Source of the DNA: Schmidtea polychroa
Taxonomy: Eukaryota
NCBI GenBank assembly: GCA_044892525.1
Contig: CM097885.1
Location: 247,132,001 to 247,196,000, forward strand
Direction of reading: 5' to 3'
DNA length: 64,000 nt
Under the pieces are notes generated by a model that saw nothing but the letters and a program-made list of their open reading frames with translations, did not search any database and was not told the origin of the DNA. Shown piece by piece: positions 1-22,408 of the stretch (position 1 is the stretch's first letter; each line of letters opens with the position of its first letter). The translations under genes were made by a program, and so were the position numbers.

Positions 1-4
1 GAAG

Positions 5-3000
5 TTGCCAAATGAAGAGAAACAAATAATAGAAGTTAATCCCGATTGCCAAGTTGACGAGTTAGTGCAAATCATAGATCAAGAGATCATCCAAAAAGCT
101 CGAGAAAATAGTGAGGATGGAATGATCGAAGATGTGATAATAATGTACAACCGGCACATGCTGGAAAGAGGAGACCGAACTGGAATTTACGAACTAGGAA
201 TCTGGGAAGATGGAGCCGTCATCAATATAATCGCGATGGATGAACCATCTGGTGGACACAAAAACGCCACGAAAACCGAGCAACAAGTTAAAAGATTCCA
301 ATGGGGAATGAGAGCAAAGATGGATCGAATAATAGATATTTATAACCATTGGCTAAAGGATGATAAACTAAAACTAGCAGCCTTCAATGACGAAGATTGC
401 AAACTGATACCATGGAAAAAAGTGTGGATCGAAAGTGAAGCTCGATGGGATTGGGAGCAGCAAAAGTTGGAACCAAATTGGATAGATAATATACCCGAAG
501 AGATCGCAGCAGTATGGGTAAGAGAGAAACCGATCGATACTTACCAGGATATATTACCACAAGAATTCCAAAATGAATTACCATCAGGAGAAGATGAGGA
601 GATACGAGAACCGGTAAGGTTAGCACCATTCACGTGGAAAATTGAGAATTGGATGGAAAAGATAAAATCAGCAAAGGAAGAGAAAATCACACGATTAGTA
701 AGTCCACCGTTCTACTCAGGATTAGGTGAGTACAAGATGAAATTGCGAATATACCCGAACGGAGACGGGATAGGTAAAGGAAATTATGTGTCGGCATTCT
801 TCGCCATCTGCAAAGGAAATTATGACGACAAGGTACCATGGCCGTTTAGCAGAAAAGTGACGATAGCAATCGAACCATTGAAAGATAGCCTTAACATGCA
901 TAAAGAAACATTGAAACCAGATCCAAGGAGCGCCTGCTATCAACGACCAACAACATCAGAAAATATCGCTTCTGGGACACCTAAATTAATACGTCTAAGT
1001 TACATTGAGAATGAGCAGTCAAAATTTGTGAAAAACAATGCTATCCAGATCAGAGTAGAAGTTGAAACAGAACAAGAAATGAACCAACGACTGAACATAC
1101 CAGAAAATCAACCGAGAATCTGTATGATGAGGAGAAGAGTGTCTGATTCAGGACATCTACCAATAGACGCCGACGCAGATGAGGAAGAAGCAGCAACATT
1201 GTTGGAAGCACAAAAATGTAAGGAGTTGATGGAGATATTACAAAACGGGGCGAAAAATCGTCGACGAGCGGTGGTAGAACTAGCAAAATGGATAGCCGAA
1301 TCATGCAAAAGGATTCAAAACCTACGAAAAATCGTTAAAGCGATTGAAGAATATCGACGGGTGTACGTATGGTACCCTGAACAATTTGGTGAAATTATCC
1401 GGAAATGGAAACAACAAGAGTGGGCCGAAAACTCACCTGAGAAATATCAATTAAAAATATTCATGCCAGATTTTGAACCAATGGAAAAGGAATTCTATAC
1501 GACAGCTAAAGTCAGAGAAGTTAAAAAGAGAATACCTTATGAACTCCCATTCCACTTACAACACGAGGGACGATCATTAGACGACGATATTGAGATTGGT
1601 GTGACACCACTCCAAGGAGAAATTGTGAACAGATTAACGGTGAGTAAAATTGCAGGTAGAGAGCTAAGGAGAAGAGAGATAAAGCAAAAATCATCCACCC
1701 AACAGCCAGGAAGTTTGGACACACCAGAAGTTCCAAATGCGGTTAGTGAAGTGACGATCGAAACAACGGGAGAAGACGAAATACTGGATGAATTACAAGA
1801 GATAGTAGAAGCCGGCGAGATTATGAGAGCATCGCAATCAGGAGATCTATTTATCGACGAAGGTGAACCGACAACTGATGATTTAGATGGATTTGTATGC
1901 GCGCAGAGACAACCAGTGGAAACGACGGAAGCCGAGACGGATTTAGATAACGTGGAAAGAAGTGCCAATAAAGATGTAACCACAACCGATGAATGGAGCA
2001 ACTGGAGAGTAGATCCAGGAGCGACCACGTCAAAAGATACTACTTACAATCCGCCAAAACGGAAAGAAACCGGAACAGCTATGGATCGACGAACAAGAGG
2101 AAGACCAAAAACAGATAAAGCAGAGATCGAACCAAAATCCAAAGTTCAGGCGCAAATGGAGCAGGTAAAAACTAAAATGGATAAACTAAGTGCATTAGTA
2201 AAACAAGTTAAAGTGAAGACAAGCGTCCGAGAACAAGGGACACGATGGATAAATGACCTATTAGCCAACATGTTAGCATTAGCAAATCCAGATGTGAAAA
2301 GAGTCATGAGGAAGGATAATATTCCGACCGAAGCCAAACAATTATGGGCAGTATTGAAACCGATAATAATGAAAATCATGGATAATAAAATTCGATTAAC
2401 GTTAAAAGATCCCGTGGAACTCAGATTAATTGTGGAACATCTATTAAGCAGATCAGAGGACCAAAATCGATTTTTAGTGGGATTAGCATATTTAGTATAT
2501 AACGTTATCGGTCAATATAAAAAACGAATGCCAAAATATAACGCAACGGGTTACGAATTCACAGTAACAGAAATAATTAAACGATCAATAGAACCATATA
2601 TACTTGAACAAGGGGGATGGAGAAGCTTCATCGAATCAACTGGGAAGAAAGATCAAACGGAAATGATGCAAGCAAAGTTACGCGATTTGCTAACTGAATT
2701 CGAAGGAACAATCAATATAAACGACCCAAGAGCAAGCCGAAAGGGAATGAATGCCATAATAACCACGATATTGATATGGATGATGTGTATCAAAGGAACG
2801 GAGTCATTTGCAGTATACGACTGCGACAACATAAAAATCCATGAGAAATATTCATTAAAGGATACGGAAGACTGTAAAGCGGCAAACCCAAGAAAATTAC
2901 AAACAGTCATGGCATCAGTCTCGTATAACGTATATCAAGAAGCAGATTTCATCAAAACCATGGTCCAAGAATGTACGGTAACCAGAAAGATATTCGCACA

Positions 3001-3220
3001 TCACTGCGGTTCATCCTCACACTCAACAATCATAGAACCAGGATTGGAATCGACAGTAATATTACTATCAAGAGAGGAATGCGAGGAAGGGTTCCGATCG
3101 GGGAGAATCCACTTAAGGCAAGGGATTGAAATTGCTGCAGAACCAGGAAAAATAAAAACGACTCGGCAGGCAGAATCACTAAAGGAGACGGAACATGTGA
3201 GACAGGAACGTACACCTTGA
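5..3220 (+). CDS. Polyprotein part 1 (5'-truncated by the window edge): MATH, ubiquitin-like and Bcl-2-like domains, hydrophobic anchor/signal, N-terminus of glycoprotein
   Basis: 1071-codon open frame already open at base 2 (the listed start is TTG, not ATG); domain motifs given in the sub-features below. Confidence 0.85.
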   Translation: MPNEEKQIIEVNPDCQVDELVQIIDQEIIQKARENSEDGMIEDVIIMYNRHMLERGDRTGIYELGIWEDGAVINIIAMDEPSGGHKNATKTEQQVKRFQWGMRAKMDRIIDIYNHWLKDDKLKLAAFNDEDCKLIPWKKVWIESEARWDWEQQKLEPNWIDNIPEEIAAVWVREKPIDTYQDILPQEFQNELPSGEDEEIREPVRLAPFTWKIENWMEKIKSAKEEKITRLVSPPFYSGLGEYKMKLRIYPNGDGIGKGNYVSAFFAICKGNYDDKVPWPFSRKVTIAIEPLKDSLNMHKETLKPDPRSACYQRPTTSENIASGTPKLIRLSYIENEQSKFVKNNAIQIRVEVETEQEMNQRLNIPENQPRICMMRRRVSDSGHLPIDADADEEEAATLLEAQKCKELMEILQNGAKNRRRAVVELAKWIAESCKRIQNLRKIVKAIEEYRRVYVWYPEQFGEIIRKWKQQEWAENSPEKYQLKIFMPDFEPMEKEFYTTAKVREVKKRIPYELPFHLQHEGRSLDDDIEIGVTPLQGEIVNRLTVSKIAGRELRRREIKQKSSTQQPGSLDTPEVPNAVSEVTIETTGEDEILDELQEIVEAGEIMRASQSGDLFIDEGEPTTDDLDGFVCAQRQPVETTEAETDLDNVERSANKDVTTTDEWSNWRVDPGATTSKDTTYNPPKRKETGTAMDRRTRGRPKTDKAEIEPKSKVQAQMEQVKTKMDKLSALVKQVKVKTSVREQGTRWINDLLANMLALANPDVKRVMRKDNIPTEAKQLWAVLKPIIMKIMDNKIRLTLKDPVELRLIVEHLLSRSEDQNRFLVGLAYLVYNVIGQYKKRMPKYNATGYEFTVTEIIKRSIEPYILEQGGWRSFIESTGKKDQTEMMQAKLRDLLTEFEGTININDPRASRKGMNAIITTILIWMMCIKGTESFAVYDCDNIKIHEKYSLKDTEDCKAANPRKLQTVMASVSYNVYQEADFIKTMVQECTVTRKIFAHHCGSSSHSTIIEPGLESTVILLSREECEEGFRSGRIHLRQGIEIAAEPGKIKTTRQAESLKETEHVRQERTP
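626..1065 (+). other. TRAF-type MATH domain within ORF1
   Basis: FTWKIENW...SPPFYS...YKMKLRIYPNGDG...NYVSAFFAICKGNYDDKVPWPFSRKVT matches the TRAF-C consensus (W.I, SP.FY, Y...LR.YPNG.G, G..D..L.WPF). Confidence 0.92.
1445..1641 (+). other. Ubiquitin-like (beta-grasp) domain candidate within ORF1
   Basis: YQLKIFMPDFEPMEKEFYTTAKVREVKKRI...FHLQHEGRSLDDDIEI...LQGEIVNRLTV aligns by eye to ubiquitin (QIFVK...TIENVKAKI...RLIFAGKQLEDGRTL...IQKESTLHLVL); no C-terminal GG. Confidence 0.5.
2240..2635 (+). other. Bcl-2-like domain within ORF1
   Basis: BH2-like YILEQGGWRSF (cf. WIQENGGWDTF) at ~2597-2629; degenerate BH1 EHLLSRSEDQNRFLVGLAY (cf. EELFRDGVNWGRIVAFF) at the expected spacing; hydrophobic segment about 40 aa later. 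Confidence 0.7.
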
Positions 3221-4640
3221 ACGGACAACTGGTTAGTGGAGTGGTCGTGATAGAAAGCTACGAAGCTAAATTAGAAAGGTATCAAGGTTATTTCGACCCT
3301 GACACGCAAGCAATGAAGAAATACCCAAGTTGTCTCGCATCAGATCGATCATGTTCAACCGGAATGTCAACTCTGGTATACCATGCGGATCAGAAGGTAT
3401 GTCGACTAATGTTGCTCAAAACAGCAATATTCGAAGAAATCCAAGGGAAAGTATACAGTGAACCAAAAGGAGAAGCAGAAAAACGAGCGATGGAAGAGTT
3501 GAGAGCAAGGAAAGGATTCAGAGAAGACGTAATAACATCGAAATTGGAATCGGAAGTAACACCCACAGCGATAATCTCCAAAGACGATGGAATAGGAATG
3601 AGGTTCATAAAGAACAAAATGGTGAGTAAATGCGATGAGATGGTGATCAGCACCAATTATAAAGGGATCTACTTGTCGCGGAGAACCCTAGCAAATGCAG
3701 TCGGAAGACTAAGCGAAAAGGATGTCAAACTATATTTATACGCTAATAATAAGATGGATTTCTTATATCACAGAGGATTAACATCCACGGAAAAAGTCTA
3801 CCATGATCTGTTAAGAAACGATTGCCTGCTCAACAAAGAAATACTGAGAACCAAATTAGCAATGGCGATTACAAATCCAGATAACGCAATTCCGTTACTA
3901 CCATTACAGGAAGGATATTTCGGACGAATCGTGGGCGAAGTGATGTACACCTACCAATGCAAAAAGATAATGGCAAGATTGCCAGAAAACCCTACAATAC
4001 CAAGAGATAAGTGTGCAAACGAACTCGAAATTATCCACGAAGGTAAACCCAGGTTTGTGCAAGCAGTCACTAGGGTAATGAACCCGGTAGGGTTTCAACC
4101 AAATCTGTTTAATTGTAGTAATGCATATGGACCAATGTATGAAAAAGAAGATGGACAATGGGTTCAATTCCCAAGTAAAACAATCGTAGTAACGCCCAAG
4201 AAATTTGGATTGACGGAACTAACAACAGAACTAGAGTTCAAGCCGATAGACGTATCCCAGAGTGGATTATATACACCAAAAGATCTCGAATCAGCAAGAG
4301 CCCACCTGTTATTCCCAGCGCAAAGACAAGCAATCTTATCAAATATAGTGACTATTTCTGGAGGAAATAATTATGGGGAGAGCCCAAATTACGAGCTATT
4401 ATTATCACCAAGTCACTATCAACAAGCAACAGCAAACATGATGAAGGCTATGTGGGGTCGATTTTTGGTATTTGGCCAAATGATGGCAGGAATACTCGGA
4501 ATTATTCTGATAATACAAATAGTCAGAGTAATACTAACCCAGATGCTAGCATGTTTTGACATCTATAAGCGCGAGAGAAAAGTAAATTGGAAACTTGCAA
4601 TTGGATTCTTACCGTTCTTAGCGAAAACAATGGTGTTGCA
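2747..4640 (+). other. Env-like fusion glycoprotein of the chuvirus/Jingchuvirales type (class III-like), split by the frameshift near 3150
   Basis: Signal peptide MNAIITTILIWMMCIKGTES then FAVYDC; AGRITKGDGTCETGTY; YTYQCKKI; MWGRFLVFGQMMAGILGIILIIQIV membrane region, all resembling chuvirus G and its retroelement-borne homologues. Confidence 0.75.
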
Positions 4641-7600
4641 TGGACACTCAAAGGATATTCATCGAATAAAAAGATTGTTGAAAATACTAACGCAAATGAA
4701 AGGGACAGACGAAGAAGTCGGACGTAAGTTCAAAGTGATAATGAGATTAGAAGCAGAAAGAACTCAAGAGAAAGCAAAAAGAACCGGGAAGTGGAAAAAG
4801 TGGATGAACCTCAGACGAGACGATGATAGTGACAACGACAATGATGATTTCGACGACGATGATAATAACCAAGGAGGAGCAATGTTGATAAATAAAAATA
4901 CAGCCACTTGGGAAAACGAAAAAATGAAACCATGGGGATCACCGTATTCACAGACCCCATATTTACAAGCACCAACTAATGGACCAATGCGACGACCAGG
5001 AACAATGAGAGAACGGATAAGAATGGGAACCGGGAGATTGCCCGTACCAAATATTTACCCAACGGCGTATGAACCAAATTGGGCAGCAATGGACCCAACA
5101 ATGATCAAGCCAATTAAAAATGTGGGGCAAGAGGTGGAAACACGAACGATTGCGGTATTGCAGACACCAGCCGGACCATCATTAACCATCACGGTCGAAG
5201 TAAACGGAATAGAAATGGATGCAATGATCGATACCGGAGCAAATATTTCGGCAATAAATATGAATATGCTACCAGGCAGACTATGGCCATGCATTGAAGA
5301 GACAACCATGGATGTAATAACATGCAGCAAACAATCCATAGCGGTGGTAGGAAGAGTATGGTCAACGATTGAATATAAAGGGGTTAAAGTTACAACGTAC
5401 CTCGCAGTCATTAGACAGCTAAGCGTATCATGTATAATTGGAACAGATGTAATGCCGGAATTATTGAAAGAAATTGTGATTGATTTGAGTTCCATGAAAT
5501 TAAAAGATAAAACTGGACAGATATGCACAATGAGAACAGAAGTGAGATGCTCCGAAAAAATGATAATACCAGCACGTACCCAGACAATATGTTATGTCAA
5601 GGTCGATAACGAAGTCAAAGGAGATATGATATTTGAACCAAGTCAAAAATTCGAGAAGAGAAGGGAGCTGCCATTGGCAAGAGAAATTGTCAGTATAAAT
5701 GAGGATAACGAGATACCCATCAATATCACCAATTTTGATGAGGAAGATAAAGTAATCTACGAAAACGAGAGACTTGGAAAACTCACACCAATGATGAACA
5801 TTGAGCTACCGGAGATAAAAAGCGAGGGAGCAGACGAAAAAGAATTATGGACCATCGATAGCGAACTCCTAAATAAAGACGAAAAGGAACAACTCAGACA
5901 ACTACTGATTGAGTTTAAAGATATTTTTGCGGCTTCAGATTTGGAATTGGGTACTAGCGATGTAACTCAACACATTATACCATTAACAGATGAGACACCC
6001 ATAACGTTAAGACCATATCGATTGGCTGAAGCACAAAAAACGGTAGCAGAGGAAGAAGTACAAAAGATGTTAGATGCTGGGGTAATAGAACCTAGTTGCT
6101 CACCATGGCAATTCCCAGTGGTAATGGTCAAAAAGAAAGATGGCACACAGAGATTTTGTATTGACTATCGGAGGTTGAACGCAGTAACAAAAAGAGATAC
6201 ATATCCACTGCCAGACATAAACGAAATGTTACAGATGTTGCATGGAGCAGCATACTTTACATCTTTAGATCTAAAGAGTGGATACTGGCAAATTAAAGTT
6301 AAAGAGGAAGATAGAGAAAAGACAGCCTTTACCATCGGAAAAGATTTATATCAGTTTAAAAAGATGCCATTCGGATTAACAAATGCACCTGCTTCGTTTC
6401 AAAGATGTATGAACTTTGTGACACACGGAATTAAACAATGTATGGTGTATATTGATGATCTGTTAATTTATTCAGGTACTTTCGAGCAACACTTAATCGA
6501 TATCAGAAACGTCTTCATAAGACTGAAACAATGGAAGCTGAAATTGAAACCGTCAAAATGCGATTGGGCAAAGGAGAGAGTCACGTTTTTAGGACATATT
6601 GTGTCGGCAAAAGGAAAGGAACCAGATCCGAGAAACGTTGAAAAGATAAAAAATTGCCCGATACCAAAGACTGTGACTCAGGTACAAGAATTTCTGGGAT
6701 TATGCGGATACTACCGCAAGTTCATCAAAAATTATGCAACTATAGCAAAACCAATTCAGGAACTAACGAAAAAAGACACCCCATTTTTGTGGGAAAGAGA
6801 ACAGCAAATAGCATTCGAATCGTTAAGAGATAAACTAATAGCCTCACCTATTCTAATACACCCAGATTTTAAAAAGCCTTTTCTACTAGCAACCGATGCC
6901 AGTGGATATGCATCAGGAGCTGTGCTAGGACAATGGGATGAGGAGAAACGAGAAAGAGTCATCGGATATTATAGCAAGACGTTCAAAAAGCACGAAAAGA
7001 ATTACTCGGTCACAGAAAGAGAAGCCTTAGCAATAATTCAGGCGATAAAACATTTCAAATATTTATTGTGGGGACACGAGATAATTATTACTACAGACCA
7101 TCAACCTCTAGTTTGGTTGGGCCAACACAAAGAAGCATCTAGCCGATTGATGAGATGGGCAATGCAGTTACAAGAATATTCCCCATACATCAAATTCAAG
7201 TCAGGAAAAGCAAACGCAAATGCAGACTGCATGTCGAGATTTGTATTTGAGGAACTCATGGATCATGACGTCAGACGAATATGCCTGATAATCGCGGAAG
7301 ATATCGATTTTACCAATCTAAAGAACGAACAAAAGGAAGACAATGAATTAAAACTAATAATTGAGTTCCTGGAAAAAAACGATATGAAAATATTCAACAA
7401 CGATGATCGACTAAAAGAACACATGGAGAAAAATCGTCACAGATATACGATCGAGAAAGGATGGCTATTGGTAATGGATGGCGACAAACGATTGATGTGT
7501 CTACCAGAAAGTAGACGGAAAGAAATTATGATTCAATACCACGATGGTAAATTGGGCGGACATATGTCAGCCAAGAAAACAGAAGCAAGGCTCAAACAGA

Positions 7601-10600: not shown

Positions 10601-11448
10601 ATCAAACCGAATTAATAACAACAACAACATGGATTAACGAAGTAATTAAAGACGAAAGACGGGAAGTGCAGATAACTATTAACCTCAACAAGAAAGGTGA
10701 AGAGGTAATTACAGTCAAAAACCAGGAAGGAGAACCAATCATAAGGATATGTGTAATGGATAAGACGGGAATAATCGACTGTACAACAACACCGATAGAC
10801 AAAGGTACAGACGTTAAAATGGAGACAGGGAAACGGAAAGAACGATACCAAGTATGTATCCTTAAGAAAGGAAGAGGAACCAGCGTATGTCAACCAATAA
10901 CTCGACAAAAACCCCAATTAATAAACATACCATGGATACCCCGAGATCAAGAAGGGGGAGAGAAACGGGAAAATCACAGTCACCTAACAGAAAAAGAGAA
11001 GGAACGATTACATCAAGCATTCAAGAAAATCAAAGCACCAGAAACAAATACCACAGGTAGTACAATATTAACGACAGAAAAAACAAATAATGGAACAACG
11101 ATCATCACAAAGATGATATGGATAACTAGCGCGATAGTAAGCACGATAATAGCGTTAGCAATGATTCAGTGGATAAGAACCACCAAAAGATGTAAACAAA
11201 AACCGAGAAACCAAAGAAAATGGCCCAAAGTGGAAAAATTTGAATACGGTATTCCAACAGAGAATCTGAATCTAGAAGAATACGAGGTGGTAGAGGATCC
11301 CGGATCCAGCGGATTGTGGATGTCGGAACTACCAAGAATACCCACACCGAACGAATGGACACACGAAGTCGATATATACCGAATAACGGACGAAAGATAT
11401 GGGGGAATGCGCACGCTGCATTCCGGCCCCATGGCGACACTGGTATAA
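3217..11448 (+). CDS. pol: Polyprotein part 2: glycoprotein remainder, Pol (PR-RT-RH-IN), ankyrin repeats, C-terminal membrane protein
   Basis: 2743-codon uninterrupted frame, open from 3130; listed start is TTG, so it is probably the continuation of ORF1. Confidence 0.95.
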   Translation: MNGQLVSGVVVIESYEAKLERYQGYFDPDTQAMKKYPSCLASDRSCSTGMSTLVYHADQKVCRLMLLKTAIFEEIQGKVYSEPKGEAEKRAMEELRARKGFREDVITSKLESEVTPTAIISKDDGIGMRFIKNKMVSKCDEMVISTNYKGIYLSRRTLANAVGRLSEKDVKLYLYANNKMDFLYHRGLTSTEKVYHDLLRNDCLLNKEILRTKLAMAITNPDNAIPLLPLQEGYFGRIVGEVMYTYQCKKIMARLPENPTIPRDKCANELEIIHEGKPRFVQAVTRVMNPVGFQPNLFNCSNAYGPMYEKEDGQWVQFPSKTIVVTPKKFGLTELTTELEFKPIDVSQSGLYTPKDLESARAHLLFPAQRQAILSNIVTISGGNNYGESPNYELLLSPSHYQQATANMMKAMWGRFLVFGQMMAGILGIILIIQIVRVILTQMLACFDIYKRERKVNWKLAIGFLPFLAKTMVLHGHSKDIHRIKRLLKILTQMKGTDEEVGRKFKVIMRLEAERTQEKAKRTGKWKKWMNLRRDDDSDNDNDDFDDDDNNQGGAMLINKNTATWENEKMKPWGSPYSQTPYLQAPTNGPMRRPGTMRERIRMGTGRLPVPNIYPTAYEPNWAAMDPTMIKPIKNVGQEVETRTIAVLQTPAGPSLTITVEVNGIEMDAMIDTGANISAINMNMLPGRLWPCIEETTMDVITCSKQSIAVVGRVWSTIEYKGVKVTTYLAVIRQLSVSCIIGTDVMPELLKEIVIDLSSMKLKDKTGQICTMRTEVRCSEKMIIPARTQTICYVKVDNEVKGDMIFEPSQKFEKRRELPLAREIVSINEDNEIPINITNFDEEDKVIYENERLGKLTPMMNIELPEIKSEGADEKELWTIDSELLNKDEKEQLRQLLIEFKDIFAASDLELGTSDVTQHIIPLTDETPITLRPYRLAEAQKTVAEEEVQKMLDAGVIEPSCSPWQFPVVMVKKKDGTQRFCIDYRRLNAVTKRDTYPLPDINEMLQMLHGAAYFTSLDLKSGYWQIKVKEEDREKTAFTIGKDLYQFKKMPFGLTNAPASFQRCMNFVTHGIKQCMVYIDDLLIYSGTFEQHLIDIRNVFIRLKQWKLKLKPSKCDWAKERVTFLGHIVSAKGKEPDPRNVEKIKNCPIPKTVTQVQEFLGLCGYYRKFIKNYATIAKPIQELTKKDTPFLWEREQQIAFESLRDKLIASPILIHPDFKKPFLLATDASGYASGAVLGQWDEEKRERVIGYYSKTFKKHEKNYSVTEREALAIIQAIKHFKYLLWGHEIIITTDHQPLVWLGQHKEASSRLMRWAMQLQEYSPYIKFKSGKANANADCMSRFVFEELMDHDVRRICLIIAEDIDFTNLKNEQKEDNELKLIIEFLEKNDMKIFNNDDRLKEHMEKNRHRYTIEKGWLLVMDGDKRLMCLPESRRKEIMIQYHDGKLGGHMSAKKTEARLKQKYYWPNMSDDVKEWIKNCLICATRKTTGSKLKPPLKPMPIPPEPMTMIAMDVVGPLPETNSGNVYILVITDYLTKFPEAFAMPDQKARTVARILVEEICCRYGTPKQILTDQGTNFMSEIINEVTNYFRIAKLRTSPYHPQTNGQTERFNGILIDMMSNYVSKHQKDWDEYIKLCLMAYRMSIHSATKMSPFKLMYGRECNMPMDLEYQPPISQYMEIDDYVTKFKERMQEIWKTAGMNIRFNQESYKELHDKKKNVQNHQFKIGDWVIIETPELIPGTAKKLQRNGRGPYEVIYVNENNARVKLVNNPLIRPIYVNTCRCKAVAKTATKDPETRRIITRSQTNATTEPEVSGRLTRSQTRRIFMLRGETSSSAHKGTEAESEADAMARSQATWNMTVKIAREIVPEWADITNKYQVLGKLMLVAERYAKGRRYAEGLQIPTQIYELIRRLPIMFLTSDLSNNWPIHHAVKAGQEKRALEIIRIMENCKQSTNVKNSKGKTPLMKAIAIGASRDVLRELLRTGSTLKEKDNKQRTVLRYAVRSKRPSIVNFITGNATTEEAEVLGQSIEPILEAIRGNLDRTAAILIKWKQNELRAEVIDINQFQNNENIVLRSAIYSRPPMPKTIKAILQRNRTELTGNWWKCTKTHAMKKQLEILVWEWHRKQRKYQGTKEERESIHNDKKEIIKKYEEMIKAANVEDDIFRKTPGERNDDDDDDERMGDNDNNPEENDREQNPEGGETTSDDEELEEDEEDQCRGEDQGFDKTENKKRKSPLHSIVCRNQIQPILLQRIFIILTSICLTETKNIRIVREASQEGEAFMIKVSDYDGNAVGICVQLMEGTGVSCDFRSITKGKIFSSQKRDPRLCGDYDICRDISTEEMELERANETGVHFQLNILEEGIEIEDKGSRSITHVCIREDRDICIITDMTQDHKFFWGEVKPNTPTVVCAGTQGIVVCKGTRTAPRKDKPKSMAMKQDPLRGIATKKPNKSVSTKTTTEQNQTELITTTTWINEVIKDERREVQITINLNKKGEEVITVKNQEGEPIIRICVMDKTGIIDCTTTPIDKGTDVKMETGKRKERYQVCILKKGRGTSVCQPITRQKPQLINIPWIPRDQEGGEKRENHSHLTEKEKERLHQAFKKIKAPETNTTGSTILTTEKTNNGTTIITKMIWITSAIVSTIIALAMIQWIRTTKRCKQKPRNQRKWPKVEKFEYGIPTENLNLEEYEVVEDPGSSGLWMSELPRIPTPNEWTHEVDIYRITDERYGGMRTLHSGPMATLV
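5180..5460 (+). other. Retropepsin aspartic protease
   Basis: AMIDTGANISAI (DTG at 5230) and downstream CIIGTDV (IIG.D motif). Confidence 0.93.
6000..6700 (+). other. Reverse transcriptase (Gypsy type)
   Basis: RFCIDYRRLN, YPLP, LDLKSGYWQI, MPFGLTNAPASFQR, YIDD at 6448-6459, FLGHIVS. Confidence 0.97.
6880..7250 (+). other. RNase H (Ty3-type)
   Basis: LATDASG..GAVLGQ, NYSVTEREALAI, TDHQPL, RLMRWAMQLQEY, KSGKANANADCMSR. Confidence 0.96.
7480..8500 (+). other. Integrase with HHCC zinc finger, DDE core and GPY/F module
   Basis: YHD...GHMS...CLIC; AMDVVGPLP; TDQGTNF; YHPQTNGQTERFN; RGPYEV at 8461-8478. Confidence 0.96.
8990..9490 (+). other. Ankyrin repeats (3 clear, up to 5) fused downstream of integrase
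   Basis: WPIHHAVKAGQ; KNSKGKTPLMKAIAIG..DVLRELLRTG; KDNKQRTVLRYAVRS match the G.TPLH.A...G consensus. Confidence 0.85.
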
Positions 11449-11596
11449 CGAGAGGAGGAGTTGTTGTAAATAATGTATAAATGAAATGATAAAAGTAGTG
11501 ATAATAGTAGTGGTATGTACAAAATAAAAGTAGTAAATTAAAACAATATGTAGAAAAATCAAAAACAAGTATGATGACCATGTATTATAAATAGGA

Positions 11597-12052
11597 ATGA
11601 ACCAGAGAAACGAAGAGCAAGAACACCCAAATGGGATACCACATGTTGTTGAAGTAAGAGAACAGCCGCTTATGAATGTACATCCAGTAGACATGATGGA
11701 AATGAACGTGCCAAACCAGCCGAGTCAGCCAACAGGATCCATGTGGAGGGCACAGTGTGAATTAATGACCCAATTGACAAATCAGACTCAAGAGCACTGG
11801 GTACGAAACCAAACGGCGTTGATAGAGAGTATTAATAGAAACGCAATATATATTACAAAAATAGAGGAACAACACCAAATAATCGCGCAACTAGAGTATA
11901 ATAACAATCAGTTAATAAGCCAAATCAGATGGCAAGCGGAAGAAATTAGAAGGTTGCATGAAAATCGACAACATGATGATATTACCAGTTTAGTCGAGTG
12001 GATGACCGGGTTACCAGGAACAGGGGAACCGGACTCGACGGTAGATGTGTAG
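11597..12052 (+). CDS. Cargo ORF, 151 aa, central coiled coil, unknown function
   Basis: ATG start, same strand and composition as the element, heptad pattern ITKIEEQHQIIAQLEYNNNQLISQIRWQAEEIRRL. Confidence 0.7.
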   Translation: MNQRNEEQEHPNGIPHVVEVREQPLMNVHPVDMMEMNVPNQPSQPTGSMWRAQCELMTQLTNQTQEHWVRNQTALIESINRNAIYITKIEEQHQIIAQLEYNNNQLISQIRWQAEEIRRLHENRQHDDITSLVEWMTGLPGTGEPDSTVDV

Positions 12053-12141
12053 GAGAAAAAGGAGTGAAATGTAAATAATCCTGTAAATAAATAGAGTTAT
12101 AATCAAGTAGAAATCCCAAGATTAAAAATCATCATTGTAGA

Positions 12142-13566
12142 ATGCAAAACAAAGCAGAGGAAAACCGGAGAGAAGCAGAGGAACAAAAGATTAACTATGA
12201 GTTGATGAGAAAATACCAAGCCGAGCCGGACGAGTTCGAAGAGAGATTATTATGTGCCGATACAGCATGTAGAAGATTATTAATTGGAGCAAGTCAAACT
12301 CGATGCGGGTGTAGATTGTGCCGAGGGTGTGATATAAGATTAGCCAGACTAAAGCGAGAAACTTGTCCAGGATGTGGAGAAGCATTTAAGTTGGTTCCCA
12401 CTGGTACGATACCGGATAGAGCAATGAACCGAGAAATCAGAGAAGTGAAAATAAGATGCACCCAAAGGTCATGCGAATGGACAGGCCGAGTAAAGGAGTT
12501 AAGAGCCCATACAGACGTATGCGAATATCTAGAATCGGAATGCGAAGCATGCACGGTAAAGTTTTTACGAAAAGAGAAAACCAAACATAAAGGGGAATGC
12601 AAAGCGCGAACGGAAAAATGCGAATTTTGCGGAGAAACTGCTAATTGGAGAGAAATCGAAATGGAACATCGAAACGCAGTAGAAAGACGGATTTGCGACG
12701 AATATACAGGGAAATGCCCAAACGAGTGTGGAGAAATTAACAACGTCAGATTAAATGAACATTGGGAGATATGCACGAGAAAAGCAATAAAATGCCCAAT
12801 GGTGACATTCGACTGTAGAGCACAATTACCAGCAGAAGAAATGAAGAAGCATGTGGAGGAGAATACATTCGAGCACATGCAAAAGATGATGAGAGCAATA
12901 GAGTTAACAGCAAGAGCAATTGAAGACGTCAAAGACGAACTCAAATCACATAAAATCATGATAAAAGAAATGCTGAGCTCACAGGAAAGCTTCGAAAATA
13001 CGAGAGAAGCCGTAACACAAAGGATGTTGAAATTAGACGACAAATTAGTCGAAGTAACTAAATTACAAACCAAATGGACTACAAAGGAACTGACAACAGA
13101 GGAACTACCAATACTACCATACATGTGGAAAATCCAAGGAATAACGGAAATAATGGAGCAAGCAAAGCAAGGAATCCAGACAACGATAGTGAGCAAACCA
13201 TTCTACGCCAAGAAACATGGATACAAGATGAAATTGAGATGGTTTCCAAATGGTGAAGGAAAGTTTAAAGATCGGTGCATGTCCATATATATGCAAATTT
13301 GTAAAGGAGATTTTGACGACCTAATAGCATGGCCATTCCGACATCGATTAAAAATATCTCTCTTAGGAGCAAAAAAGACACATATAATGTGTTTTCGAGC
13401 ATCCAGTCCAGCAGGGAATAAACCGATTACAGAGGTTAATCCTGCGGTAGGAGTAGCAGAGTTTATGCAGCTATACCAATTTAACGAAGGGTCCTACATA
13501 GAAAAGGACACTATATTCTTCCTAATCGAACTAGATGAGGAAGGACCAACAATAGAAATACGATAG
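12142..13566 (+). CDS. traf: Full-length intronless TRAF-family protein (variant RING, TRAF zinc fingers, coiled coil, MATH)
   Basis: RING CADTAC...CGCRLCRGC...CPGC; zinc fingers C...C.W.G....L..H...C; MATH YMWKIQG...SKPFY...YKMKLRWFPNGEG...GDFDDLIAWPF. Confidence 0.93.
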   Translation: MQNKAEENRREAEEQKINYELMRKYQAEPDEFEERLLCADTACRRLLIGASQTRCGCRLCRGCDIRLARLKRETCPGCGEAFKLVPTGTIPDRAMNREIREVKIRCTQRSCEWTGRVKELRAHTDVCEYLESECEACTVKFLRKEKTKHKGECKARTEKCEFCGETANWREIEMEHRNAVERRICDEYTGKCPNECGEINNVRLNEHWEICTRKAIKCPMVTFDCRAQLPAEEMKKHVEENTFEHMQKMMRAIELTARAIEDVKDELKSHKIMIKEMLSSQESFENTREAVTQRMLKLDDKLVEVTKLQTKWTTKELTTEELPILPYMWKIQGITEIMEQAKQGIQTTIVSKPFYAKKHGYKMKLRWFPNGEGKFKDRCMSIYMQICKGDFDDLIAWPFRHRLKISLLGAKKTHIMCFRASSPAGNKPITEVNPAVGVAEFMQLYQFNEGSYIEKDTIFFLIELDEEGPTIEIR

Positions 13567-13706
13567 ACGGATAGAAGGGAACTGTAAATATTTTGTAAAA
13601 ACGATGTAAAGTAAATATAAAGTTATTGTATACAGTAAAGTAACGTGCCAAAACCATAAAAATTAGAAAAAGAAAATGTAAAAAGAAATGATGAAATTTA
13701 TTATAG

Positions 13707-14885
13707 ATGATTAATCAAGAGAGACCGAATATCCGAAAGAAAACGATCACAATGAGAGAGGAAGAGGACAATATGTCACCTAGAGAAAGAGTGAAGGATG
13801 CGGAAGTCAGCAAAACAAAACCAAGTAGTTACGCATATTATCGGAGAATGGGAAACGATTATAATTGGGTACACGAAAATTTGAAACTGGGAAATAATGA
13901 ACAATTCAGATGTGAGAACCAGAGATATCTGTCATTTGAACATCAGACCATTTTTACCAAGGAACAAAGCCGAGCGCTAGCACGCGACGGATTTTTCTTC
14001 TCTGGAAAACCAGAGATACCCGATCAAGTAACATGTCGTTTCTGTAAAGGGAAATTAGCAGAATGGAAAAAAGGAGAACACCCAAAGGAGGAACATCGTA
14101 GACGATTCCCAACTTGTCTATTCGTACTGGGATTTGATGTACACAACAAACCGGAAATCAAATACGAAGCCTTGGAGAAATTGAAAACTGAAGACGAAAA
14201 AGGAGGGAAAATGAGCATCGCGATAACCAGAATCGTTGATGAGTATGTTCCAACTTGTGAAGGGGAATTCCTCACGCAAATAGCAGATAATAGAATGAAA
14301 ACGTTCGGAGATGATACGAGAGGACCTGAATTAGCAATAAGAGGGTTCTACCTAACAGAAAATCAAATACTAAAGTGTGAAAGATGCGAAAGCCAACAGA
14401 GATTACCGGAAGAAGGCATACCAGAAATTAGACATCAAGCATGGTGCCTATATCACAACGAACAAGAAACCGAATATCCGGAAGTACTAGTAACAGAGGA
14501 AGAGGTTGACGAAGTGGTAGACAAACCCAACATGTGCAGAGCGTTGAAAGCAGCCGGAATAGGCACGACAAGGGCAAAGAACATGATTAGAGAGAAACTA
14601 CAGAAAAATGTACATATACCAACAACAACGTACGATATGATCAGAGCGATAACCCAGTATAGAGAAAAACCTGAAACAAAAATAAAAGAAGAATCAATGG
14701 TCAAAACAGCTATCTTACGAGATATCAAATGTACTATGTGTTGGGAGAGGAGTGTAGAAGTTATTCATATGCCATGCGGACATTTGATCGCATGTGCCAC
14801 ATGTAGTAGAAAAGTAAAGGAATGTCCGATGTGCAGACAGAGGATTGCGCAGCGAATCAAAGGATTCCGCTACGCCGATCAATAA
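13707..14885 (+). CDS. iap: Inhibitor of apoptosis (IAP): BIR, degenerate BIR, C-terminal RING
   Basis: BIR1 R..SF...LARDGFFF...VTCRFC-x16-H-x6-C; BIR2 RMKTF...LAIRGFY...CERC...H...C; RING CTMC...PCGHLIACATC...CPMCR. Confidence 0.94.
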   Translation: MINQERPNIRKKTITMREEEDNMSPRERVKDAEVSKTKPSSYAYYRRMGNDYNWVHENLKLGNNEQFRCENQRYLSFEHQTIFTKEQSRALARDGFFFSGKPEIPDQVTCRFCKGKLAEWKKGEHPKEEHRRRFPTCLFVLGFDVHNKPEIKYEALEKLKTEDEKGGKMSIAITRIVDEYVPTCEGEFLTQIADNRMKTFGDDTRGPELAIRGFYLTENQILKCERCESQQRLPEEGIPEIRHQAWCLYHNEQETEYPEVLVTEEEVDEVVDKPNMCRALKAAGIGTTRAKNMIREKLQKNVHIPTTTYDMIRAITQYREKPETKIKEESMVKTAILRDIKCTMCWERSVEVIHMPCGHLIACATCSRKVKECPMCRQRIAQRIKGFRYADQ

Positions 14886-14967
14886 CAAAAATTAAAATTC
14901 CGTGTATAAAGTGTAGATAATAAATGTATGAAATAATAGTGGTAGTAATAGTGTAATTATTTAGACA

Positions 14968-16533
14968 ATGAATAAAGAATCACAAACCTATGTGGAAACC
15001 GAGATGCAACAACTCGAACAGTACAAATCCATCATACAAACATACGAAGCAGAAAGAGTAAAGAGAGAAATAGAAATGTACAAAACCATGTATGAGAAAA
15101 AGCAACAAGAATTAGAAGCGGAGAAGGCGGAAGCACTAGCAACAAAGGAGGAGTGGATGAAACAGGTAGAGGAATTAACCGAGGATGTGAGAAATACCTC
15201 AACATACCAAGAATTGGAGGAAGAGCTCTCGAATTTACGAACTCAGCGGATTATGGAGATAGTTGGGTTATGCGGAGAGATAATAATGCAGAAGGCACAA
15301 ATTAGGGAAGCAAAGGAGCAATACGAGGAGGAACAGCGTAAAACGGAACGAATAAAACTACAAGCGCAACAATGGAAACTAAAGTACGAAACCCTCCAGA
15401 CAAGGCAGAATGATAGTCACGAACATCAAATACGGAATTACAAGGCCGAACTAGAAGAAGTAAAGGGCAAATGCGCAATGATGAAAGAAAAATGGGAAAG
15501 ATGCAAAAAGACCCTAAACGAAGTCAGAGGGCAAGGGAGGAGAACACCGCATAGAGAACCAATTGTTAGAAATAACGTATTAGAGCGAATTAACACACAA
15601 ATAAAGATACAAGCCCAGAAATGGAAGTATAAATACCTAGGAAGTCAAACTCAAGTGCTCTATTGGAAAATCAGTAGCAAGGAACAACTGCGATTACGAA
15701 AAGCAGACCAAGAATTTTACGAAACAAGAGCTGCACAGCGAGAAGAAGAGGAAGTAGAGTGGAGAAAACGACAGCAGAAAACTGAGGAAACCGAAAAGTG
15801 TCTCAAGCATCAAGCCCGAAAATGGAAAAAGAATTGGAAAGAGACCAAAGAGGAGTTAAGACAGTTACCAATAAAACTGATGGAAAGAGACGAATTTAAA
15901 ATATGGGAAACGATAGAAAACCAAAAAGATGAGATCAGCCGATTGAGTAGAGAACATAGAATCAAGACGCGGATCAGCGACGGTAGACAGAGAATCATAA
16001 AGAAACAGACTCGAGAAATAAGAAGGTATGAATTCCAGGAAAAGAGATGGGAACAACAATTGACAGACCAAGATCGACAGATCCGACAATTACAAACCGA
16101 AGTGGAAGAAGCCAATCAAGAGATGAACGGATATAAAGGTATGTACACCCAAAGGGATGTGAATTGGAAGCACCAGATTGAGCTTAATGCGAAATATAGA
16201 GAGGAGTGCGACAAGACAATTCAACAAACCAAACAGGAAACCGAGATAATAAAACGATGCTTCGAAGAAAATGAAGCAAATTTGAGAGCGGAAATTGAGA
16301 AACTAAAAACGCTCGAAAGAACCCAACGATTGGAAGAGGAATTAAACGAAATGATAGAAAACGAAGGTAGATTAACGTTTTTATTGGATGAGGAAATAAA
16401 CATCTCAACGGAACTACGAGAGGAAATAGATCGGTTAAGGAGACAACCACCAATATTATTAATGCCTGCCGAAGTCACCACAGATGAAGGCTTCGATGAA
16501 AATAACGAACAAAATAACGCAACATGGATTTAG
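14968..16533 (+). CDS. Cargo ORF, 521 aa, long coiled-coil protein
   Basis: E/K/Q/R-rich heptads along most of the length; ATG preceded by an acceptor-like TAG. Confidence 0.8.
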   Translation: MNKESQTYVETEMQQLEQYKSIIQTYEAERVKREIEMYKTMYEKKQQELEAEKAEALATKEEWMKQVEELTEDVRNTSTYQELEEELSNLRTQRIMEIVGLCGEIIMQKAQIREAKEQYEEEQRKTERIKLQAQQWKLKYETLQTRQNDSHEHQIRNYKAELEEVKGKCAMMKEKWERCKKTLNEVRGQGRRTPHREPIVRNNVLERINTQIKIQAQKWKYKYLGSQTQVLYWKISSKEQLRLRKADQEFYETRAAQREEEEVEWRKRQQKTEETEKCLKHQARKWKKNWKETKEELRQLPIKLMERDEFKIWETIENQKDEISRLSREHRIKTRISDGRQRIIKKQTREIRRYEFQEKRWEQQLTDQDRQIRQLQTEVEEANQEMNGYKGMYTQRDVNWKHQIELNAKYREECDKTIQQTKQETEIIKRCFEENEANLRAEIEKLKTLERTQRLEEELNEMIENEGRLTFLLDEEINISTELREEIDRLRRQPPILLMPAEVTTDEGFDENNEQNNATWI

Positions 16534-16546
16534 TCGAAGGGAGATG

Positions 16547-16704
16547 NNNNNNNNNNNNNNNNNNNNNNNNNNNNNNNNNNNNNNNNNNNNNNNNNNNNNN
16601 NNNNNNNNNNNNNNNNNNNNNNNNNNNNNNNNNNNNNNNNNNNNNNNNNNNNNNNNNNNNNNNNNNNNNNNNNNNNNNNNNNNNNNNNNNNNNNNNNNNN
16701 NNNN
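16547..16704. other. Assembly gap (N-run) inside the element
   Basis: Run of n. Confidence 1.
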
Positions 16705-16775
16705 AAATTACAAAACCAAAAAATTCAGAATAAAAAGAAGACAAAAGGAAATATGATATGTATATTTTTGTAGAT

Positions 16776-17543
16776 ATGAATTATTTAAAAGAAAGAGAAT
16801 CAACGAGTAACGAAGGAAAGTCAAACGACCAACCTGAACAAAACCAGGATATGATACCAATCAAACAAGAACCGATGAAATATTATAGCAATAAATGGAG
16901 AGTCAGCAAGAAGTTGTTCAAATTAAAGATTGCAAATCAAAATGTAGAGATTACGAGATTGAGGCAGCATATTGTTCAATCAAGACGATTAATAAACACT
17001 GTCAAGCAAGAAATTTTGAGGGAAATAAAGGAATCGAAACGAAAAGAGACAGAAAATAAAAACCTGAGACGAGAGATAGTAGAGTTGAGAGCTCAGGCAG
17101 TAATCGAAGATTATTGGAAATCAGAAACAAGGAAGTTGAAAAAGATTGTGAATATCGACCAAGTCTATATCGAGCAGTTAGAAGCACAATATGCTTATGC
17201 AAAAACAAGAGTGCGAGAAAGTAAAAAAGTCGAGAAGAGAAATGTAAAACTCAAGGAAGAGATCAAGGAACAAAGAGAGGAAACAGAAAAACAATGGAAG
17301 TTGAAAGAAAATTACCGGAGAATCTTAAATCAAAAACGACGAAGCATGCAAGCATTGCAGACGGCAATAACCATCAAGCAGAGAAAATGGAAAAGTAAAG
17401 AGAAGCAATTACAAGAAATACCAGAATTAAAGAGACAGTTGATAGCAACGCAACTCGAAGTAATAAGAATGAACGAGTTGAGCAAAAGACGAGCACCTGA
17501 ACCTCCCGTAAAATTAAGGGATGAGGTCGGTGGCTCCCAATAA
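16776..17543 (+). CDS. Cargo ORF, basic coiled-coil protein (~255 aa; ATG 16776 preferred over 16758)
   Basis: Open frame 16758-17543; TTTTTGTAG acceptor directly before in-frame ATG 16776, matching the other cargo ORFs. Confidence 0.75.
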   Translation: MNYLKERESTSNEGKSNDQPEQNQDMIPIKQEPMKYYSNKWRVSKKLFKLKIANQNVEITRLRQHIVQSRRLINTVKQEILREIKESKRKETENKNLRREIVELRAQAVIEDYWKSETRKLKKIVNIDQVYIEQLEAQYAYAKTRVRESKKVEKRNVKLKEEIKEQREETEKQWKLKENYRRILNQKRRSMQALQTAITIKQRKWKSKEKQLQEIPELKRQLIATQLEVIRMNELSKRRAPEPPVKLRDEVGGSQ

Positions 17544-17619
17544 ATGAGACAAAATAACCGTGTAAATAAATTGTAAATAAAGCCAAGTAATTATTATTAA
17601 CATATATGTATATGTAAAG

Positions 17620-18606
17620 ATGAGAAGCCTAATCGTGATGATGATTATAATGACAATGCCAAAAATCCTGCAAGCAGAAGAATCAATGATCAGATGCCAG
17701 AAAGAATACCCATATCGCAGAGAAGATAGTACATGTAGTAGCTTTAAATCGATCTGCGAAAAACCCAATGAGGAATGCGAACAAATCAAGTTACAATGTT
17801 CGCAATGTCCACAAACAACTGAAAGTTCGACGGAAGTGCAAATGGCTCAGACAATAAAAACAATGTTAGAACAAGAAATGAAAGTTATCAGAACCCAGAT
17901 AGCAACATTAGCCAAACAATGTCAAAGTCAGAAATCAAAGAGAGAATCCCAAACAGATCCAGCCGCAATGAGAATGATGGTAATAATATTAGAGGAAATA
18001 AAACAACAGGTAACAGCAACCGCCTATGGACGTTCAAGCAATTGCGAAACAGTAGTAAAATCTTTGGAGGAAATGAAAGGAAAAATAACTTCCATCATCA
18101 AAGAGGAACCCAGCATTAAAAATGAGGTAACGAAAACCTTGAAAGAAATGACAAGGGAAATCCTAACTACCATAAACAAAAACCCAACGAACTCCGAGAA
18201 GATGATTAAAACCCTTGAGGCAATAAAGAAAGTTGTCACCTCAGAAGAAAACAAATTCAATAAGCCCGAAAAATCAGAAACGGCGGATACAACCCAATTA
18301 AAAGAAATTATGAACAAACCCAAAGTAATAGAACCGAGAGAGTCTGAATCCCTCACAATAGTGATCCTATTAGCGGCGAGCCTAATGATAAACATCACCG
18401 TACTGAGCCTGATTGCACTCAAACCCAATTCCAGTAAAGAAAGAAACAAAACCCTCAAACTAAAGGAACAATCAAGAAGTATTCGTATCCCAATGGAAGA
18501 ACAACTAGTCCAAACAACGAACCAACCAAGCTACTTCAAATCTTCCCCAAACATTGAAACCAGAGCCGTCATCGAGACGAGATCCCGAACAACCGAATTT
18601 TATTAA
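17620..18606 (+). CDS. Cargo ORF, 328 aa type I membrane protein with Cys-rich N-terminus
   Basis: Signal peptide MRSLIVMMIIMTMPKILQA; six-Cys cluster; TM LTIVILLAASLMINITVLSLIAL followed by a basic tail. Confidence 0.8.
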   Translation: MRSLIVMMIIMTMPKILQAEESMIRCQKEYPYRREDSTCSSFKSICEKPNEECEQIKLQCSQCPQTTESSTEVQMAQTIKTMLEQEMKVIRTQIATLAKQCQSQKSKRESQTDPAAMRMMVIILEEIKQQVTATAYGRSSNCETVVKSLEEMKGKITSIIKEEPSIKNEVTKTLKEMTREILTTINKNPTNSEKMIKTLEAIKKVVTSEENKFNKPEKSETADTTQLKEIMNKPKVIEPRESESLTIVILLAASLMINITVLSLIALKPNSSKERNKTLKLKEQSRSIRIPMEEQLVQTTNQPSYFKSSPNIETRAVIETRSRTTEFY

Positions 18607-20959: not shown

Positions 20960-21320
20960 TGGATTATAAAATTATAGTTATCATAATCCTGATCATTTCC
21001 CTTGTTATTACTATTAGCAGTATCAACATTATCATTACTATTAGTATTATTATTCTTATTATTATTATATTATTATTATCATTATTATGAATATCATAAT
21101 TAGCATTATTATTATTATCATCATTATCAGTACCATTATAAAAATTTATTATTATTCTTGTTATTACTATTATTAGTATTCTTATTATTACCATTATTAA
21201 AATTTATTATTATTCTTATTATTATTACTATCATTGCTATTATTAATATTATTATTATCATTATTATTACTATTATTAGTATCGTTATTTCATTGTTATT
21301 ATTATTGGTATTATTACAGT
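20960..21320. repeat. Degenerate (ATT/ATC/ACT)n trinucleotide microsatellite
   Basis: About 360 nt of attatt/atcatt/actatt units. Confidence 0.9.
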
Positions 21321-21831
21321 TAACTACAAAAAATCGATATCCCAATCCGATATCGATCACCTGGAAATTTAGAAATTAGCAAATTAAATAAATTACTTGT
21401 ATGCAGAGCAAACCACTCATAACGAGCACAACCGAAGGAAAGGTAAGCAGACGAAGAGCTTAGTTCGTTGCTAGTACCTGTCGCCCCAGCGTGCCCGAAT
21501 TTAGTGGCCTAAGAATGACGATCAAAAAGGAAAAAATTCACATTTTATTAATATGTAAATTAAAATTTATAAATAGTAATTAAAATTACTACTCAGTGGT
21601 AAACAAAATTTTGAATGGAAATGATTAATTTAAACAAACGAATTTTGACGAAAATTTTTTTTGTGTGTTTGTTTTGATAAAGTAGGAAATCTTATTCCAC
21701 TGCTCCTAAACTTATAGATGGTAGTCTTAAAATAAAATATTTTTTTTTAAAGGGAAAAAGGGTCAACAAAATCTTGTGGTTGACGTCGTATCTCAATCAG
21801 TATAGAGGGGCTTGATTATTATTTTGTAGAA

Positions 21832-22197
21832 ATGTCCTACTCTGACAGCGATAGCCACGAAGAAGCCGACCGACAGATGCTTACCAGACTCCGTACACGG
21901 TACATATGGCACCGTATCCATGATTGGAATCGGGGTTTGGACCTCGACAACTTTGGCCCAGTAATCAGGAGTGGGCCGGAGCCGGACGCTCCGGCGTGGG
22001 TAAAAACAGAGCCCACAAACGATTTTTTGCAAGAGGCCCGCGACCGAGCGGCCATCGAGGTAGAAGCAGCTCAGATGCGACTCAAGAAGATCGAGCTACA
22101 AATCCAAGCAGAAAAAGAGGGAAAAACCGTGGAGGACCTAGAAGAGGCCGAGGCAACCCCGCGGAAGAGGGGAAGGCCTCGCAAGCGACTGAACTGA
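21832..22197 (+). CDS. 121-aa protein with C-terminal AT-hook
   Basis: GC-richer island; PRKRGRPRKR; TTTTGTAG acceptor 2 nt before ATG. Confidence 0.6.
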   Translation: MSYSDSDSHEEADRQMLTRLRTRYIWHRIHDWNRGLDLDNFGPVIRSGPEPDAPAWVKTEPTNDFLQEARDRAAIEVEAAQMRLKKIELQIQAEKEGKTVEDLEEAEATPRKRGRPRKRLN

Positions 22198-22408
22198 CTC
22201 ATCGTCAAAAATTTTGTTTTTTGCAAATTAACATTCAGTTGCGATTTTATTAAACTTTGATTTTAGTGATAATTATTTCAGTCCTTTTAATAAATCATCT
22301 TGTGTATTGCGTGCTTAACATCCGAAACTATGTTTATTTATAATATTGATTTTATTTTATAATTGAATGAATAGTATGCTGCAAGAATATAATCGTTGAA
22401 TTTATCTA

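Follow-up and report, generated by a model that had tools for sequence, protein, structure and literature searches.

What joins a Bcl-2-like domain, an IAP and a TRAF to the genes of a retroelement on a planarian chromosome, and what might such a cargo do there? The question is raised by a 64,000-nt stretch of the Schmidtea polychroa genome (GCA_044892525.1, CM097885.1, 247,132,001-247,196,000, forward strand; hereafter the window), in which the original prediction had placed an env-bearing Gypsy element at 1..18606. All parts claimed for this region are encoded on the + strand, and the Bcl-2-like, IAP, TRAF, MATH, ankyrin and ubiquitin-like (Ubl) domains, Pol and the glycoprotein were recovered at the predicted places by Pfam and family profiles. 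The limits had to be redrawn, as the element begins about 11 kb further upstream and extends to 23,277. Pairing of the LTRs places the 5′ LTR between 11,062 and 6,746 bases before window base 0 and the 3′ LTR at 18961..23277 (+), followed at 23278-23281 by the 4-bp target-site duplication that flanks the element. Each LTR spans 4,317 bp with TG..CA ends, and the pair differs by 1 mismatch. With an internal region of 25.7 kb the element measures 34,340 bp, of which the window contains the 3′ two thirds. Its domain order is Gag-Ubl-MATH-Ubl-Bcl2-Env-PR-RT-RH-IN-ankyrin, and the TRAF and IAP genes come after. The primer-binding site presumably resembles the tRNA-Pro type; none of the 6 examined among 1,074 pattern matches was a tRNA gene. 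Among the 150 genome matches listed for the Bcl-2-like domain, 77 belong to open frames no shorter than 4,770 aa and 60 to frames of 4,791 aa (stop to stop), and the element accounts for 123 of the 150 top-scoring MATH matches and 116 of the 150 top-scoring BIR matches listed. The locus is a single element with defined limits and domain order, many young open-frame copies and a selected cargo, namely a recently inserted copy of a young, high-copy, env-bearing Gypsy retroelement that is in all likelihood of the Burro1 type.

Stop to stop, the polyprotein's first frame measures 2,087 aa, and its 3′ half lies at 2..3220 (+). The frame opens some 3 kb before the window with Gag, which has three CCHC knuckles and a retrotrans_gag match just under the Pfam cut-off (E = 1.7e-4), and a first Ubl domain. 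Within the window follows a TRAF-type MATH domain (629..1063, +; Pfam E = 1e-29) with 48% identity to the best TRAF locus outside the element and 34% to the element's other MATH domain. The MATH tree resolved the origin of neither (support 30/14), and we therefore name no donor. The second of the two Ubl domains (1430..1651, +) had no direct match in a Pfam search of the present copy. A profile built from it and its element-borne relatives matched ISG15, NEDD8 and ubiquitin (E = 2.5e-6), and the Protein Atlas gave clusters of the ubiquitin type at 0.86-0.88, which is lead level only.

The predicted Bcl-2-like domain (2240..2650, +) is borne out by a profile match, but it is divergent, lacks the NWGR motif and is not matched in a Pfam search of the present copy. 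The profile of the domain and its element-borne relatives detected human Bcl-2 with E = 4e-5, and all 60 matches listed from this search were Bcl-2 or Bcl-xL. The BH2 motif and the helix 5-6 region are present; at BH1, NWGR is replaced by QNRF here and by NRDK, DRDV and DKEV in the relatives, and is thus missing from 4/4 aligned domains. Two relatives match PF00452 (E = 6e-5 and 8.5e-5), though these matches fall short of the curated cut-off. Fold models reached a pLDDT of 42 from the single sequence and of 60 from ten rows; with the latter, Foldseek returned nothing under E 0.001, and a wide structure search returned only generic helical bundles, with Bak ranked 43. The Protein Atlas gave no lead for this domain.

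Env (2750..4569, +) is a chuvirus/gB-type fusion glycoprotein, matched in both frames by PF24664 (Monjiviricetes fusion glycoprotein; E = 1e-16 and 6e-46). Hydropathy places its transmembrane helix at about 4480-4536; a signal segment is likely at its start, where hydropathy stays below the threshold used. The expectation of an intact Pol holds, its frame being open, but a frameshift within env splits the polyprotein of the present copy into frames overlapping at 3130-3220; in 10/10 siblings examined the frame runs continuously across this site. Pol (5188..8229, +) comprises, by Pfam, an aspartic protease, RT (YIDD), RNase H and integrase, and ankyrin repeats lie 3′ of the integrase (8995..9300, +; ankyrin, E = 3e-8; Ank_2, E = 7.5e-9). 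In an RT tree of 7 rows the element groups with other env-before-pol families (support 95/93). The C-terminal part of the polyprotein, set between two hydrophobic segments (9949..11448, +; hydropathy), had no Pfam match above cut-off and probably forms a second protein of the surface, outside any known family.

Downstream of a 151-aa accessory ORF that belongs to no family (11597..12052, +; omega 0.08) lies a full-length intronless TRAF (12142..13566, +) with RING, zinc fingers, coiled coil and MATH (Pfam: zinc fingers and MATH, E = 8e-27). Outside the element, four intronless TRAF-like loci are collinear with it and have the same CGC motif in the RING, in which C stands where H is usual. The adjacent IAP (13707..14885, +) had been described as BIR-BIR-RING. 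Pfam confirms the first BIR (E = 9e-16; C-x2-C-x16-H-x6-C) and the C-terminal RING (E = 3e-12), but not the second BIR, a degenerate zinc site (C-x2-C-x15-H-x3-C) whose best BIR match has E = 0.59. In 20/20 copies all zinc ligands of BIR1 and RING are conserved, as are the four ligands of the second BIR. At the set thresholds, a homologue search returned two mollusc IAPs for the IAP, none for the TRAF and none for the Bcl-2-like domain.

Three further ORFs follow. A charged ORF of 521 aa (14968..16533, +; omega 0.26), with a sub-threshold Pfam match only, likely encodes a coiled coil of the type annotated as Smc-like, judged by its sequence. It was clean in 9/20 copies by a crude frame test, which counts too many breaks for this ORF, and a 533-aa frame was found in 8/10 copies. 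A second charged ORF of 261 aa (16758..17543, +; omega 0.36), with an uncertain start owing to an N run just upstream, is likewise probably a coiled coil, and a 328-aa ORF (17620..18606, +; omega 0.42; hydropathy 2.6 at 18358) is likely a type I membrane protein. The element also has a leader RING gene. A TAG lies 0-3 nt upstream of the ATG in 5/7 accessory ORFs compared to 8% in the background (p = 6e-5), a count that becomes 6/7 with a post hoc choice of the second Met. These motifs hint at production of the accessory proteins from putative spliced subgenomic mRNAs.

That the parts form one element is confirmed by the siblings, as the cargo is present and collinear in 20/20 copies (best-scoring copies, 18 picked by Pol and 2 by MATH). 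Omega, derived from counts of shared, phylogenetically non-independent variants, was 0-0.02 for Pol, 0.12 for the Bcl-2-like domain (adjacent linkers equally constrained, 0.09-0.12), 0.14 for ankyrin, 0.18 for the IAP, 0.22 for the TRAF, 0.28 for the C-terminal polyprotein part and 0.46 for the polyprotein MATH (p = 0.035); the Ubl estimate rests on 1 shared variant, and BIR1 alone reached only p = 0.06 in this first copy set. Against 12 more diverged copies, values were 0.32 for the IAP, 0.06 for RING and 1.00 for a spacer. The proposed dN/dS check came out in favour of purifying selection on the cargo, with values of 0.12-0.46 where informative versus 0.81-1.17 for non-coding controls (shifted frames, 1.2-3.9 where defined). 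It is virtually certain that the cargo is protein-coding and under selection. Conserved order and a dN/dS well below 1 together mean neither chance adjacency nor decay. The selection data show that the cargo performs a function for the element and make assays of individual genes worth doing.

The architecture has a published counterpart. Burro1/GYPSM1 of S. mediterranea (Jurka 2007, Grohme 2018), as described in section 7 of the review by Arkhipova & Yushenova 2019 (PMC6431247), exceeds 30 kb, with long LTRs, roughly 25 kb of internal sequence, a retrotrans_gag with three CCHC knuckles as here, and a polyprotein of 4,873 aa versus 4,791 aa in most open siblings of our element. The order MATH-Ubl-BCL2-Env-PR-RT-RH-IN-ankyrin plus BIR is common to both, and for Burro1-4 that text lists MATH/TRAF-C, Ubi/SUMO-like, BCL2, env between gag and pol, ankyrin and BIR. 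By this description, rather than by sequence, the element is almost certainly of the Burro1 type. The same review proposes that the Burro domains meddle with host apoptosis and ubiquitination, and calls the idea worth testing; the literature searched yielded no published test. The original prediction had considered the combination a candidate novelty unless an identical architecture had been published, and since that of Burro1 has been, with the same order and proposed role (PMC6431247), neither architecture nor hypothesis is new. The separate downstream RING-zinc finger-MATH TRAF, leader RING ORF, second Ubl and extra membrane proteins found here are unnamed in the part of the review covered, and may appear in the figures of Grohme 2018; the literature covered, which excludes Grohme 2018, yielded no full-length host-like TRAF, leader RING or TAG-ATG pattern. 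The dUTPase-like domain placed by HHpred in the Burro1 PR-RT interval had no Pfam match here at E up to 10. A further likeness is to Smed_errantivirus_1 to 6 (eLife 2026, PMC13524379), GAG-ENV-POL errantiviruses of Platyhelminthes with an HSV/gB-type env before pol and many intact copies in the Ty3/gypsy group. They differ in size (about 15 kb in two supplement rows versus 34,340 bp here), and the main text does not mention Burro, BCL or TRAF. To a transposon specialist, the architecture by itself will be unsurprising.

What is the cargo for? Large DNA viruses (baculo-, pox- and asfarviruses) carry viral IAPs and Bcl-2 mimics of tested activity. Our element resembles them as a mobile agent with BIR-RING and Bcl-2-like genes and differs in its eroded BH1 and its putative activity. 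Host survival or signalling, including the TNF/NF-κB signalling of the original prediction, is the putative target, a view we favour slightly. The overall explanation, held at a probability of roughly 0.6, is that the cargo likely keeps the producing cell alive and dampens stress and immune signalling. Judged by topology, a polyprotein of about 4,800 aa would be threaded through the membrane, with the portion from Gag to the Bcl-2-like domain in the cytosol, a hydrophobic stretch serving as anchor and as Env signal, Env in the lumen, and protease, Pol and ankyrin back in the cytosol. The accessory genes, to go by their TAG motifs, would be translated from subgenomic RNAs made by splicing. Family knowledge suggests that the BIR-RING of the IAP could bind and ubiquitylate caspases or caspase antagonists, and that the TRAF/MATH domains may compete for receptor tails with the TRAFs of the host.

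A possible, clearly less probable explanation is that the cargo works chiefly in assembling the element itself and hardly affects the death of host cells, the Bcl-2-like domain being a membrane-bound spacer before Env and Ubl/RING controlling polyprotein processing or turnover. The eroded BH1, a constraint no stronger than that on the neighbouring linkers, and the position of the Bcl-2-like domain directly before Env in three other S. polychroa families and in 6/14 library matches all fit this, yet it does not account for a complete TRAF gene and a BIR-RING gene that stand alone and are under selection. Maintenance for host benefit, as domesticated survival genes, is improbable: TRAF-like genes are required for cell survival in S. 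mediterranea, according to PMC7586133, and the element supplies the bulk of the MATH and BIR matches listed above, but selection is seen here among the lineages of a family that is scattered and still copying, its LTRs near-identical, rather than on one fixed locus, and BURRO1 is PIWI-silenced (PMC8532177). A neutral passenger role, chance proximity or an artefact of assembly, for which the frameshift in the present copy is the only support, has a negligible probability, being refuted by the 20/20 collinearity and omega values far below controls; independent public contigs that cover the stretch also speak against it. Against the cell-survival role favoured above stand the missing BH1 motif, the degenerate second BIR and the finding that smaller env-bearing relatives in the S. 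polychroa genome spread as well; TRAF, MATH and IAP matches were absent from those examined, so this cargo is dispensable for spread. It also counts against that role that in S. mediterranea, according to PMC8532177, loss of the PIWI protein SMEDWI-2 raises BURRO1 RNA and BURRO1 RNAi did not improve the SMEDWI-2-loss phenotype.

A more far-reaching reading is doubtful, namely a putative active planarian retrovirus, infectious from cell to cell, with seven accessory genes expressed from alternatively spliced subgenomic RNAs and with a host-derived TRAF and IAP that join a second RING ligase in a single module, blocking death and NF-κB/JNK signalling in the cells where the element is active. If true, the element would also account for part of the planarian TRAF expansion that has been reported and of the RNA-seq signals after injury or infection. 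In any case, the near-identical MATH and BIR copies carried by the element number in the hundreds and may confound read mapping, the counting of gene families and the design of RNAi in planarians. Contigs covering the stretch wholly or partly (six putative-RNA runs and one unclassified) contained no splice joints. In one contig, LTR-like sequence is fused to position 13606; a splice is disfavoured, as the joint lacks GT-AG, and the contig looks more like a deleted copy. Contigs of one run have oligo-A ends, one of which coincides with an A-rich genomic stretch.

The element is real, and it extends beyond the window. Completed with own-genome DNA upstream (stretch L003), it measures 34,340 bp, with TG..CA-ended LTRs of 4,317 bp each that differ by one mismatch, and a 4-bp target duplication. 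Assuming that the S. mediterranea rate of 1e-8 applies, this single mismatch would place the insertion, very roughly, about 10,000 generations ago. The upstream part encodes Gag with three CCHC knuckles and a further ubiquitin-like (Ubl) domain. Its leader also has a tandem repeat of 131 bp (4,139-3,825 bases before base 0 of the window), and the coding region after Gag has a duplication of 126 bp (1,334-1,083 bases before base 0). Some 6 kb before the window starts, the 5' leader carries an ORF of 160 aa (L003:3975-4454) that has an IAP-type RING (E 5e-12); this ORF is conserved across copies, recurring as a 160-aa frame in nearly all of the 150 matches listed. Within the window, positions 1-18,606 are A-rich with about 39% G+C (flank, about 27%). 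On their plus strand, a long frame at 2-3220 overlaps a second one at 3130-11,448, and there are six more ORFs. A planarian host is suggested by the element type, the A+T-rich DNA and four large contigs. Two small ORFs occupy the LTR (21832-22197 and 22400-22879), with no Pfam family for the one scanned.

Pfam matched MATH, protease, RT, RNase H, integrase, ankyrin, a TRAF with zinc fingers and MATH, and BIR plus RING. A Pfam scan of the present copy gave no match for the Bcl-2-like or ubiquitin-like domains; a profile built from four element-borne domains matched Bcl-2 over BH1-BH2 (E 4e-5), and one built from six ubiquitin-like domains matched ISG15/NEDD8 (E 2.5e-6). All families of the apoptosis and TNF/NF-kB toolkit named in the original prediction were thus seen, but the second BIR of the IAP is degenerate and the Bcl-2-like domain lacks NWGR, which makes a pro-survival Bcl-2 of the classic kind less likely. 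The Pol domains predicted as intact were likewise matched, whereas the Monjiviricetes-type fusion glycoprotein (Pfam) is divided between both long frames by a frameshift in this copy that is absent from 10/10 siblings examined.

Pol matches were 97-100% identical in all 40 listed, and 77 of the 150 genome matches listed for the Bcl-2-like domain fell within frames open for 4,770 aa or more. MATH, Ubl, Bcl-2-like, ankyrin, TRAF and IAP were each found in 20/20 siblings, free of stops and frameshifts in 20, 20, 20, 20, 19 and 18 of them, respectively. Omega (dN/dS) was computed from variants common to at least two copies; these were the best-scoring copies and have common ancestry, which makes p-values optimistic. 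It was 0-0.02 for the enzymes, 0-0.05 for env, 0.12 for the Bcl-2-like domain, 0.14 for ankyrin, 0.18 for IAP, 0.22 for TRAF and 0.46 for the polyprotein MATH, against 0.81-1.17 in non-coding controls and 1.2-3.9 in shifted frames where defined. Ubl had one shared variant only, and BIR1 by itself reached p 0.06. Against 12 more diverged copies, omega was 0.32 for IAP, 0.22 for BIR1, 0.08 for BIR2 and 0.06 for RING, with 1.00 in the spacer. The cargo travels with the element, is under constraint wherever informative, and is functional for the element.

The proposed novelty of the combination did not survive comparison with the literature: both architecture and hypothesis are already known. Arkhipova & Yushenova 2019 (PMC6431247) describe Burro1/GYPSM1, of the same size, with three knuckles, an ORF1 of 4,873 aa, an env that lies in frame behind gag and ahead of pol, and Smc, MATH, Ubi/SUMO-like, BCL2, ankyrin and BIR domains, and propose that it meddles with apoptosis and ubiquitination. 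By description, our element resembles it in size, knuckles, MATH, Ubl, BCL2, env position, ankyrin and BIR. In the accessible portions of further papers, gB-type GAG-ENV-POL errantiviruses include six S. mediterranea entries (PMC13524379); smedwi-2 RNAi raises gut-enriched BURRO1 RNA, and BURRO1 RNAi gives no rescue (PMC8532177); TRAF/MATH abundance is reported in PMC6109357 and PMC7586133, the latter with no occurrence of 'transposon' or 'Burro' in the part available; and Burro is mentioned a single time in each of PMC11410931, PMC13309565 and PMC10175614. The present analysis contributes the evidence of selection, a full TRAF of host-like type, the RING of the leader and a hint of splice acceptors that can be tested.

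In the same genome, at least three smaller families (L085-L086, L055-L056, L100-L101, L060; frames of 3,053, 3,334 and 3,361 aa, LTR-like repeats of 0.6-1.1 kb) likewise place Gag, a Bcl-2-like domain and Env ahead of Pol, and carry Ubl; two have Pfam Bcl-2 matches below cut-off, and none of those examined matched TRAF, MATH or IAP. A Bcl-2-like domain precedes the same Env in 6/14 library matches. Outside the element, four intronless TRAF-like loci are collinear with the TRAF that it carries, at 27-32% identity and with the same CGC RING motif, which fits capture from a host family; the MATH tree did not resolve the origin of the element MATH domains. Among the top 150 MATH matches, 123 lay in frames of at least 600 aa, assigned to the element family by frame length alone, and 27 in short host-like frames, so that a host TRAF expansion also exists. 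For BIR, 116 of the top 150 matches were in 392/393-aa frames. TRAF-like genes that do not belong to the element, some with two exons and some intronless, form clusters at G000:C2 114-121 Mb and 3-32 Mb (own genome; L058, L062-L073).

That the polyprotein would be threaded through the membrane is suggested by hydrophobic segments, one following Env and others on either side of the C-terminal part, together with a stretch ahead of the Env start in relatives; the segment preceding Env is below the hydropathy threshold set. From family knowledge only, IAP and TRAF would act on caspases and receptor signalling. TAG lies 0-3 nt ahead of ATG in 5/7 accessory ORFs, versus 8% background (p 6e-5; spacers, window 11590-17620); these TAGs may mark splice acceptors, and two or three of them also act as in-frame stops. 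A donor-like AG/GTAAG occurs at LTR nt 2480, and no splice joints were present in the contigs examined.

Two Polinton-like elements with a chromodomain-bearing integrase and Pox_A32 ATPase were also observed. The first (L088-L091, G000:C1:247,538,600-247,555,200) has 1.5-kb inverted ends, a free-standing 152-aa Bcl-2 ORF (PF00452, E 1.3e-7) and a TBP-like ORF; the second (L094-L095) has an IAP-type RING ORF. Repeated Bcl-2 matches suggest several such families with Bcl-2; on Polinton and Bcl-2 in planarians, only Arkhipova & Yushenova 2019 was found. Outside the element, a DDE_1 transposase fragment (Pfam) lies at window 37798-38346.
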